Shown here: in pieces, positions 1,712 to 4,859 of the stretch
Position numbering within the stretch: the stretch's first letter is position 1
Layout: the number at the start of each line of letters is the position of its first letter
Assembly: GCF_003991155.1 (NCBI RefSeq)
Contig: NZ_CP031295.1
Length of the DNA: 64,000 bases
Source: Escherichia coli
Lineage (GTDB): Bacteria; Pseudomonadota; Gammaproteobacteria; Enterobacterales; Enterobacteriaceae
Reading direction: 5' to 3' (one strand)
Notes under the pieces: generated by a model
Told to the model about the DNA's origin: nothing
The model's database searches: none
The model's input: only the letters and a program-made list of their open reading frames with translations
Position numbers and translations under genes: made by a program

Positions 1712-1811
1712 GCCACATACATGTTTAGCTTAAGGCTCAGAACATTTTAAATGTCTGAGCCATTTCTCACAGACCCCTACCCTGTAATGGCCATCGGGTA
1801 ATGACTCCAAC

Positions 1812-2189
1812 TTATTGATAGTGTTTTATGTTCAGATAATGCCCGATGATTTTGTCATGCAGCTCCACCGATTTTGAGAACGACAGCGACTTCCGTCCCA
1901 GCCGTGCCAGGTGCTGCCTCAGATTCAGGTTATGCCGCTCAATTCGCTGCGTATATCGCTTGCTGATTACGTGCAGCTTTCCCTTCAGGCGGGATTCATA
2001 CAGTGGCCAGCCATCCGTCATCCATATCACCACGTCAAAGGGTGACAGCAGGCTCATAAGACGCCCCAGCGTCGCCATAGTGCGTTCACCGAATACGTGC
2101 GCAACAACCGTCTTCCGGAGCCTGTCATACGCGTAAAACAGCCAGCGCTGGCGCGATTTAGCCCCGACGTATCCCCACTGTTCGTCCAT
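1812..2189 (-). CDS. insB: IS1 InsB reading frame (normally expressed as InsAB' by frameshift)
   Basis: Translation contains the IS1 InsB sequence (...[41 protein letters not shown]...). Confidence 0.9.
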
Positions 2190-2233
2190 TTCCGCGCAGA
2201 CGATGACGTCACTGCCCGGCTGTATGCGCGAGG

Positions 2234-2509
2234 TTACCGACTGCGGCCTGAGTTTTTTAAGTGACGTAAAATCGTGTTGAGGCTAACGCCCATAATGCGT
2301 GCAGTTGCCCGGCATCCAACGCCATTCATGGCCATATCAATGATTTTCTGGTGCGTACCGGGTTGAGAAGCGGTGTAAGTGAACTGCAGTTGCCATGTTT
2401 TACGGCAGTGAGAGCAGAGATAGCGCTGATGTCCGGCGGTGCTTTTGCCGTTACGCACCACCCCGTCAGTAGCTGAACAGGAGGGACAGCTGATAGAAAC
2501 AGAAGCCAC
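2234..2509 (-). CDS. insA: IS1 InsA
   Basis: Translation [43 protein letters not shown]... is the IS1 InsA zinc-finger protein. Confidence 0.95.
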
Positions 2510-2617
2510 TGGAGCACCTCAAAAACACCATCATACACTAAATTAGTAAGTTGGCAGCGTCACCTTTTGCGTCTATAGTCATGATGTCAAATGAACGCGT
2601 TTCGACAGGAAATCATC

Positions 2618-3943
2618 ATGAATAAATATCAGGCAGTTATTATTGGTTTTGGCAAGGCTGGAAAAACATTAGCCGTCACGCTGGCAAAAGCAGGTTGGCG
2701 TGTGGCTCTCATCGAACAATCAAATGCAATGTATGGCGGGACCTGTATTAATATCGGCTGTATCCCAACCAAAACATTGGTTCATGACGCACAGCAGCAC
2801 ACAGATTTTGTCCGTGCCATACAGCGTAAAAATGAAGTGGTTAATTTTTTACGTAATAAGAATTTTCATAATCTTGCGGATATGCCCAATATCGACGTGA
2901 TCGACGGCCAGGCGGAGTTTATCAATAATCATAGCCTGCGTGTTCATCGGCCTGAGGGAAATCTGGAAATTCATGGCGAGAAAATTTTTATTAATACCGG
3001 TGCAAAAACCGTGGTTCCGCCAATTCCTGGAATTACCACCACGCCTGGTGTATATGACAGCACCGGATTACTTCATCTAAAAGAATTGCCTGGGCATTTA
3101 GGTATTTTGGGCGGCGGATATATTGGCGTTGAGTTCGCCTCTATGTTCGCTAATTTTGGCAGCAAGGTAACCATTTTAGAAGCAGCTTCGCTGTTTTTGC
3201 CTCGGGAAGATCGGGATATTGCTGATAACATCGCGACGATTTTACGCGATCAGGGCGTCGATATTATCCTCAATGCCCATGTGGAGCGAATCAGTCACCA
3301 TGAAAATCAAGTGCAAGTGCATAGCGAGCACGCCCAACTGGCGGTGGATGCACTGTTAATAGCTTCCGGTCGTCAACCGGCTACCGCTTCTTTACATCCA
3401 GAAAATGCCGGTATCGCAGTAAACGAGCGCGGGGCAATTGTCGTTGACAAGCGATTACATACCACCGCAGACAATATTTGGGCGATGGGAGATGTTACCG
3501 GCGGGCTGCAATTTACTTACATATCACTAGATGATTACCGCATTGTACGTGATGAGTTACTGGGTGAAGGCAAACGTAGTACTGATGATCGGAAAAATGT
3601 GCCTTATTCCGTATTTATGACACCGCCACTGTCCAGGGTTGGTATGACAGAAGAACAAGCCAGAGAGAGTGGTGCTGATATTCAGGTGGTGACATTGCCT
3701 GTAGCTGCAATTCCGCGCGCCAGAGTGATGAACGATACCCGTGGGGTATTAAAAGCGATTGTTGATAATAAAACCCAACGTATATTAGGGGCATCACTGC
3801 TGTGTGTTGACTCCCACGAGATGATCAATATAGTGAAAATGGTGATGGATGCCGGGCTGCCTTATAGCATATTACGCGATCAGATATTTACTCATCCGTC
3901 GATGAGCGAATCACTCAATGATCTATTTTCATTAGTCAAATAA
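2618..3943 (+). CDS. rclA: RclA-type class I pyridine nucleotide-disulfide oxidoreductase (441 aa)
   Basis: MNKYQAVIIGFGKAGKTLAV (FAD GxGxxG), redox-active CINIGC; full-length match to E. coli YkgC/RclA as recalled; AGGA 8 nt upstream of ATG 2618. Confidence 0.85.
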   Translation: MNKYQAVIIGFGKAGKTLAVTLAKAGWRVALIEQSNAMYGGTCINIGCIPTKTLVHDAQQHTDFVRAIQRKNEVVNFLRNKNFHNLADMPNIDVIDGQAEFINNHSLRVHRPEGNLEIHGEKIFINTGAKTVVPPIPGITTTPGVYDSTGLLHLKELPGHLGILGGGYIGVEFASMFANFGSKVTILEAASLFLPREDRDIADNIATILRDQGVDIILNAHVERISHHENQVQVHSEHAQLAVDALLIASGRQPATASLHPENAGIAVNERGAIVVDKRLHTTADNIWAMGDVTGGLQFTYISLDDYRIVRDELLGEGKRSTDDRKNVPYSVFMTPPLSRVGMTEEQARESGADIQVVTLPVAAIPRARVMNDTRGVLKAIVDNKTQRILGASLLCVDSHEMINIVKMVMDAGLPYSILRDQIFTHPSMSESLNDLFSLVK

Positions 3944-3951
3944 ACTCAAAA

Positions 3952-3990
3952 TCAGACGCCAGAACAAATATTCTGGCGTCTCAGAGAAAA
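3952..3990 (+). terminator. hairpin downstream of rclA
   Basis: Inverted repeat AGACGCCAG...CTGGCGTCT just after the stop codon. Confidence 0.45.
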
Positions 3991-4039
3991 TAATCTTATT
4001 AATTCCCTGTTATTATATAACTTCTTAATCACTTCATTG

Positions 4040-4859
4040 GGCACTGTTGCAAAGTTAGCGATGAGGCAGCCTTTTGTCTTATTCAAAGGCCTTACATTTC
4101 AAAAACTCTGCTTACCAGGCGCATTTCGCCCAGGGGATCACCATAATAAAATGCTGAGGCCTGGCCTTTGCGTAGTGCACGCATCACCTCAATACCTTTG
4201 ATGGTGGCGTAAGCCGTCTTCATGGATTTAAATCCCAGCGTGGCGCCGATTATCCGTTTCAGTTTGCCATGATCGCATTCAATCACGTTGTTCCGGTACT
4301 TAATCTGTCGGTGTTCAACGTCAGACGGGCACCGGCCTTCGCGTTTGAGCAGAGCAAGCGCGCGACCATAGGCGGGCGCTTTATCCGTGTTGATGAATCG
4401 CGGGATCTGCCACTTCTTCACGTTGTTGAGGATTTTACCCAGAAACCGGTATGCAGCTTTGCTGTTACGACGGGAGGAGAGATAAAAATCGACAGTGCGG
4501 CCCCGGCTGTCGACGGCCCGGTACAGATACGCCCAGCGGCCATTGACCTTCACGTAGGTTTCATCCATGTGCCACGGGCAAAGATCGGAAGTGTTACGCC
4601 AGTACCAGCGCAGCCGTTTTTCCATTTCAGGCGCATAACGCTGAACCCAGCGGTAAATCGTGGAGTGATCGACATTCACTCCGCGTTCAGCCAGCATCTC
4701 CTGCAGCTCACGGTAACTGATGCCGTATTTGCAGTACCAGCGTACGGCCCACAGAATGATGTCACGCTGAAAATACCGGCCTTTGAATGGGTTCATGTGC
4801 AGCTCCATCAGTAAAAGGGGATGATAAGTTTATCACCACCGACTATTTGCAACAGTGCC
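4040..4859 (-). mobile_element. IS26 (820 bp)
   Basis: Terminal repeats GGCACTGTTGCAAA at 4040-4053 and rc at 4846-4859; no 8-bp target duplication. Confidence 0.95.
4092..4796 (-). CDS. tnpA: IS26 transposase Tnp26
   Basis: Translation MNPFKGRYFQRDIILWAVRWYCKYGISYRELQEMLAERGVNVDHSTIYRWVQRYAPEMEKR... is the IS6-family Tnp26. Confidence 0.95.
   Translation of the reverse strand: MNPFKGRYFQRDIILWAVRWYCKYGISYRELQEMLAERGVNVDHSTIYRWVQRYAPEMEKRLRWYWRNTSDLCPWHMDETYVKVNGRWAYLYRAVDSRGRTVDFYLSSRRNSKAAYRFLGKILNNVKKWQIPRFINTDKAPAYGRALALLKREGRCPSDVEHRQIKYRNNVIECDHGKLKRIIGATLGFKSMKTAYATIKGIEVMRALRKGQASAFYYGDPLGEMRLVSRVFEM

Follow-up and report, generated by a model that had tools for sequence, protein, structure and literature searches.

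The 64,000-bp window analysed here, a stretch of Escherichia coli contig NZ_CP031295.1 (assembly GCF_003991155.1), carries the oxidoreductase gene rclA between two insertion sequences (ISs), IS1 and IS26. How did this gene come to lie there, and could it be expressed at this site? The comparisons presented below favour the view that the window holds a decayed version of an rclA unit that was captured by IS1 and circulates on enterobacterial plasmids, in which rclA is probably expressed independently of its activator RclR and would give the host extra defence. The features concerned were as follows:

1797–2564, minus strand: IS1, 768 bp, with terminal repeats at 1797–1819 and 2542–2564
2551–2579, plus strand: predicted hybrid sigma-70 promoter, with its −35 element (2551–2556) in the left inverted repeat (IRL) of IS1 and its −10 element (2574–2579) in chromosomal DNA
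2565–4039, plus strand: captured E. coli chromosomal segment, 1475 bp, 100% identical to 3001–4475 of chromosomal locus L001
2618–3943, plus strand: rclA coding sequence, 441 amino acids, intact, with active-site C43 and C48
3954–3981, no strand assigned: native stem-loop between rclA and rclB, stem of 11–12 bp, part of the chromosomal sequence
4040–4859, minus strand: IS26, 820 bp, bounded by perfect 14-bp repeats; its one transposase open reading frame (ORF) lies at 4092–4808

Identity and Boundaries of the Captured Segment

The product of the ORF scored 870.3 bits over residues 1–441 of 441 on the NCBIfam equivalog model NF040477 (reactive chlorine resistance oxidoreductase/hypothiocyanite (HOSCN) reductase), which has a curated cut-off of 740 bits. 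[quoted passage not shown] The motifs GFGKAG (residues 10–15, of the GxGxxG type) and CINIGC (residues 43–48, with the redox pair C43/C48) were both present, and the DNA was 100% identical to annotated chromosomal rclA. The C43/C48 pair is needed for HOSCN reduction (PMC9335216). The initial annotation of this DNA, which had proposed an RclA-like flavoprotein from the same two motifs, was thus borne out. It had also named a fragment of mercuric reductase (MerA), or another flavoprotein disulfide reductase, as the case that would overturn this identification. The fold and a CxxxxC motif are indeed common to MerA and the ORF, and the MerA model TIGR02053 gave 334 bits. That score lay below its cut-off of 454 bits, the second model (NF010311) gave 268 against 600 bits, and the RclA equivalog was passed; with the end-to-end structural alignments and the DNA identity, these scores refute a misidentified enzyme as the explanation. 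Judged by its sequence, the ORF is a genuine RclA, an intact flavoprotein disulfide reductase, and NADH-dependent HOSCN and Cu(II) reductase activity would be expected of a protein equal to that of chromosomal alleles.

When the window was aligned to one matching E. coli chromosome (L001), homology stopped exactly at the IS ends. At least 30 complete E. coli genomes had a chromosomal rclA locus with 100% identity to the segment between them (the initial annotation had supposed about 1.4 kb of captured, IS-bounded chromosomal DNA); rclA itself was present in 5119 of the 5426 complete genomes. On the left, the boundary lay 53 bp upstream of the ATG at 2618, so that 173 of the 226 bp of the native rclR-rclA intergenic region were missing; on the right, it lay 96 bp past the stop codon and 12 bp before the start codon of rclB. 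A tblastn search of the 64-kb window found no rclR, rclB or rclC, which agrees with the earlier statement that the divergent regulator gene is absent. With 53 of the 226 intergenic bp kept and these three genes missing, the copy constitutes neither an rclABC operon nor a member of the RclR regulon.

Both ISs were structurally complete. IS1 had the expected size, terminal repeats of ~23 bp and insA/insB, which lie on the minus strand, with the right inverted repeat at 1797 and IRL at 2564, facing rclA. It was identical to the element annotated as "IS1SD family transposase" in a typical plasmid copy (L003). IS26 also showed the structure of its family and was identical to the annotated IS26 of L003, and its transposase gene is directed at the 3′ end of rclA. 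No target-site duplication of 8–9 bp was found around IS1 (flanks tggccatcg/ttttgcgtc), none of 8 bp around IS26 (cttcattg/ctgtggag), and none around the whole IS1-to-IS26 block. Neither a second IS1 nor a second IS26 was detected in the 64-kb window, and a single copy of each without duplication does not make a composite transposon. The layout given by the initial annotation (IS1 end, 53-bp gap, 441-residue ORF, IS26 from 4040) and the lack of duplications at both ISs were confirmed by these comparisons.

A Predicted Promoter at the IS1 Junction

Read outward, the left repeat end of IS1 runs ...AAGTTGGCAGCGTCACC, and chromosomal DNA then continues TTTTGCGTCTATAGT. The resulting TTGGCA, 17-bp spacer and TATAGT match the sigma-70 consensus at 10 of 12 positions and rank among the two best such matches in 2400–4100. 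The IS1 end adjoins chromosomal DNA 9 bp upstream of TATAGT, and the native Shine-Dalgarno sequence of rclA is intact. The native rclR-rclA intergenic region had no sigma-70 promoter match on the plus strand, and its sequence at the −35 position is AATGTT; such a lack of a native −35 element is expected for a promoter that needs an activator of the AraC type, RclR. IS1 carries an outward −35 element in its repeat, and hybrid promoters form when a −10 element is suitably spaced from it (PMC8764528; PMC9330008, which cites Prentki 1986 for IS1 hybrid promoters). At the sequence level the junction has this arrangement, an outward −35 element within the repeat lying 16–18 bp from a flanking −10 element. 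The 17-bp spacer was observed in the window, in Klebsiella, Salmonella and Enterobacter copies and in the chromosome; the difference from other copies falls at window position 2572.

Thus, the IS1-derived promoter is likely to be the most plausible source of rclA expression. At the IS1 junction, rclR and all of the native rclA promoter region beyond about position −20 have been lost, and the outward −35 element of IRL has taken the place of that region, at optimal spacing from the putative native −10 element. Transcription of rclA, with a predicted start near 2586, would then require neither RclR nor induction by oxidants, and a promoter that needed an activator would have become self-sufficient through IS1. 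The initial annotation had left the choice between IS1-derived and read-through promoters. The former can now be located, and read-through from IS1 is ruled out, as insA and insB lie on the strand opposite rclA and point away from it.

It could also be proposed that the plasmid gene is still regulated by RclR, with the chromosomal RclR of the host acting through a site within the 53 bp that the unit keeps ahead of the ATG. Most hosts encode RclR, and no mapping of the RclR operator was found in the accessible literature. AraC-family activators work from sites at or upstream of the −35 element, and of the native sequence preceding the putative −10 element the unit keeps just 9 bp; with 173 of the 226 intergenic bp gone, we regard continued control by RclR as quite improbable.

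The stem-loop downstream of rclA was real, with a predicted free energy of −19.3 kcal/mol and z = −6.4 relative to shuffled sequences; it spans 3954–3981 and not 3952–3990, as annotated before. It has no U-run on the plus strand and a T-run on the minus strand. It therefore resembles a terminator on the minus strand only, where it would tend to stop antisense read-through leaving IS26.

Variants of the Unit and Its Probable Origin

The unit proved not to be peculiar to this stretch of DNA. The exact IS1-rclA junction was found in 187 plasmids of PLSDB, which sets a lower bound for public plasmids, and the rclA-IS26 junction in 89. The complete IS1-rclA-IS26 arrangement occurred in 198 records from 189 of the 5426 complete E. 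coli genomes (~3.5%), a few of them with the unit integrated in the chromosome, and the gene is annotated as rclA there. When the whole chromosomal rclR-rclC region (L001:1973–5329) was used as the query, the variants shared one left junction, and their right ends ranged from 53 bp shorter to 132 bp longer than that of the window. The right ends, numbered on this query, were as follows:

2635: inverted IS1 inside rclB; Klebsiella michiganensis and K. oxytoca IncFIB plasmids, beside lacY; 132 bp longer
2558: inverted IS1; many E. coli IncFIA/FIB/X1 plasmids, including tet(X4) plasmids; 55 bp longer
2527: inverted IS1; Salmonella IncHI2 plasmid with the last 68 bp of the left IS1 and the junction kept; 24 bp longer
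2503: IS26; the window
2450: inverted IS1; Enterobacter IncFIB/FII plasmid; 53 bp shorter

In the E. coli plasmids of the 2558 type, the unit occupies the same backbone site as in the window. Eight plasmid loci on IncF, IncHI2 and IncFIB backbones from five genera were compared base by base. The rclA ORF was intact in all eight (five by translation and three by record annotation), and the right-hand deletions, which stop at four different IS1 positions and at IS26, never entered rclA. The TTGGCA/−10 junction was kept in seven of the eight loci. The exception is a Klebsiella IncFIB plasmid (L007), in which the element found 11 bp ahead of the rclA ATG is IS5 instead of IS1 and the putative −10 element has been removed. 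In this plasmid and in another of the same kind (L005), an E. coli-type rclA unit directly adjoins plasmid-borne lacY-lacZ. The Salmonella IncHI2 plasmid pUGA14_1 (L011, 2933–3000) has only the last 68 bp of its left IS1, with the TTGGCA/TATAGT junction intact, which suggests that the junction itself is what gets retained.

Because the nested series of right ends shares one left junction, it points to a single capture by an inverted pair of IS1 elements, both with IRL inward, which would have been followed by successive adjacent deletions from the right. IS1 would have taken up a position 53 bp ahead of the rclA start codon in an E. coli chromosome, with a second, inverted IS1 inside rclB, and IS1-rclA-IS1 would then have reached plasmids. 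The right side may later have been shortened repeatedly, so that in the lineage of the window IS26 now lies 96 bp past the stop codon. IS26 is most simply explained as a later truncation and not as part of the capture. The earlier suggestion of an IS-mediated capture is therefore retained for IS1; the part given to IS26 is not, since relatives with an identical left junction are IS1-rclA-IS1.

The sequence L004, from the chromosome of an E. coli strain of sequence type 540 (NZ_CP007391), contained IS1-rclA-IS26 together with an integrase, parM and umuDC in positions 1–18276. Part of the segment is repeated in tandem, with frameshifts in one of the copies of rclA and IS26. This arrangement reflects either integration of a plasmid or misassembly.

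The rclA Allele of the Window

The window and the typical plasmid copy L003 were identical in IS1, in IS26 and in the outer flanks, and their rclA segments differed at 19 sites spread over 2572–4015. At every one of these sites the window has the chromosomal allele. No other plasmid copy with the rclA allele of the window was found, the best being 99.0–99.4% identical, and the calculated chance that all 19 differences would fall within 1475 of 3261 bp is ~3e-7. With the outermost markers at 8 and 24 bp from the IS ends, an ordinary double crossover would have had almost no flanking homology to use. The other plasmid alleles were mosaics when the window was compared with L002, L003, L005, L006 and L007. 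Here, two explanations were considered: the first is gene conversion of the whole tract with the host chromosome, which is favoured by the mosaic alleles on other plasmids; the second is an artefact of assembly or polishing that involves both the chromosomal and the plasmid copy.

Benefit to the Host or Passive Carriage

On a plasmid, rclA alone fully protects E. coli against HOSCN, and the enzyme reduces it with a kcat/KM of 9e7 M-1 s-1 (PMC9335216). Previous work presented RclA as a Cu(II) reductase that guards cells against hypochlorous acid (HOCl) plus intracellular copper and aids host colonisation (PMC7527725). From this literature, HOSCN is the better-supported substrate compared with chlorine or copper. 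An intact RclA from the plasmid would thus supply the host with a pre-made extra dose of HOSCN defence, and a copy free of its regulator would plausibly confer pre-induced protection. RclA helps cells to survive reactive chlorine stress and to colonise the host, and to our knowledge it is the only characterised HOSCN reductase of enterobacteria.

Several observations weigh against this interpretation. Nearly all E. coli keep the chromosomal rcl operon (rclA in 5119 of 5426 genomes), so the benefit added by a plasmid copy may be small. Truncated plasmid copies of rclA exist (H111–H117), and retention is hence not universal. Typical E. coli IncF copies (L002, L003 and L006 were compared) have an extra C that makes the spacer 18 bp, so its exact length is not conserved. 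The assignment of TATAGT as the −10 element is a prediction, and InsA, which binds the IS1 repeats, could repress or damp an outward promoter. As to the origin, no target duplications flank any variant, the IS1-rclA-IS1 forms of L005 and L006 included, and no chromosomal progenitor with IS1 at precisely this junction turned up when a chimeric 400-bp query was run against the 5426 complete E. coli genomes. The route of capture given above is therefore a reconstruction and not an observation. IS1 did occur near the chromosomal rclR-rclA locus in 14 genomes; in the three that were mapped (L008, L009, and L010), it lay at other sites, with 8–9 bp duplications.

These points give some room to the idea that rclA is an inert passenger, a relic of IS shuffling that is poorly expressed or silent without its activator site and hitch-hikes on antibiotic-resistance plasmids. 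The gene lies among IS fragments (IS30 and IS3-family remnants at 1–1328), target duplications are lacking, other plasmids carry truncated copies, and the hosts almost always retain their own rcl operon. What speaks against passive carriage is that the ORF was intact in all eight variant loci, that right-hand deletions halt before rclA, and that the IS1 −35/−10 junction, a 10/12 promoter match, was kept even where the rest of IS1 has been deleted. An intact ORF and a retained junction across the variants are modest evidence for selection. We therefore consider the inert passenger possible but unlikely, and the RclR-independent expression of a captured, useful gene remains the favoured reading.

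A more far-reaching proposal is that the regulator-free, IS1-promoted rclA is a selected tolerance gene that spreads horizontally, travels with resistance cargo, repeatedly swaps alleles with chromosomal rclA of the host and can substitute for chromosomal copies inactivated by IS1. Its targets would be oxidants of host lactoperoxidase and myeloperoxidase (HOSCN, chloramines) or chlorine sanitisers, and the resistance cargo includes tet(X4) plasmids of pig and pork isolates. We regard this proposal as speculative and, taken as a whole, rather doubtful.

Ten chromosomes of E. coli from pigs, pork and cows showed a common match pattern near rclA. In one of them, that of strain NT1F10 (NZ_CP075462; L009, 3744–5845), a divergent IS1, 93.9% identical to that of the window and flanked by an 8-bp duplication, interrupts the chromosomal rclA. 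At least two such strains, NT1F10 and YPE3, carry an intact IS1-rclA-IS1 on a tet(X4) IncFIA/FIB/X1 plasmid (pNT1F10-tetX4, L014, and pYPE3-92k-tetX4, L015). The plasmid copy may be the only functional rclA in these two strains.

If rclA is constitutively expressed from the unit, a defence against oxidants of innate immunity and disinfection has become mobile and uncoupled from its sensor. If this is true, the defence is also linked to multidrug-resistance plasmids in bacteria of livestock, food, wastewater and patients, and exposure to oxidants could favour resistance plasmids as a route of co-selection. The gene is already annotated as rclA by the NCBI pipeline in hundreds of records, and a full-text literature search found no paper that discusses plasmid-borne rclA.

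Plasmid Context

The rest of the window is the backbone of an F-type conjugative plasmid, which over a stretch of 25 kb matched IncF plasmids from E. coli, Salmonella and Shigella at 99.7–99.8% identity. Left of the unit, there were a fragment of an IS30 transposase gene (1–367, minus strand) and a 5′-truncated IS3-family transposase gene (435–1328). On the right, the ORF at 4787–5293 starts within IS26, which indicates that IS26 has taken the place of the 5′ end of a backbone gene.

Comparison with Known Systems

The chromosomal rclRABC locus has the same rclA coding sequence, ribosome-binding region, putative −10 element and downstream stem-loop as the window. The window differs from it in that rclR, the upstream 173 bp, rclB and rclC are missing, the −35 element comes from IS1, and the gene is located on a conjugative plasmid.

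IS1 forms composite transposons such as Tn9 (IS1-cat-IS1) and Tn1681, in which a heat-stable toxin gene lies between inverted IS1 copies. The relatives L005, L006, L012 and L013 are similar in holding a passenger of 1.4–1.6 kb between two inverted IS1 elements. In the window, by contrast, the right IS1 has been replaced by IS26. No variant has 9-bp duplications, so transposition as a unit is hypothetical. As in the IS26-bounded resistance regions of IncF plasmids, an IS26 that lacks an 8-bp duplication lies directly against the passenger, a typical outcome of deletion or cointegrate formation mediated by IS26; unlike those regions, the 64 kb contain one IS26 and hence neither a pseudo-compound transposon nor a translocatable unit.

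A functional parallel is provided by IS1 fusion promoters, for example those upstream of blaTEM, acrEF and afaA, in which an outward IS1 −35 element is likewise combined with a resident −10 element at 17–18 bp (PMC8764528; PMC9330008). The target here differs from theirs in that it serves oxidant defence and has a native promoter requiring an activator, and the activity of the fusion is a predicted one. The arrangement would thus work like the known IS1 fusion promoters and IS1 composite transposons, yet it is not itself a composite transposon, and the unit may serve as a compact natural example of how IS1 could make an activator-dependent promoter self-sufficient.

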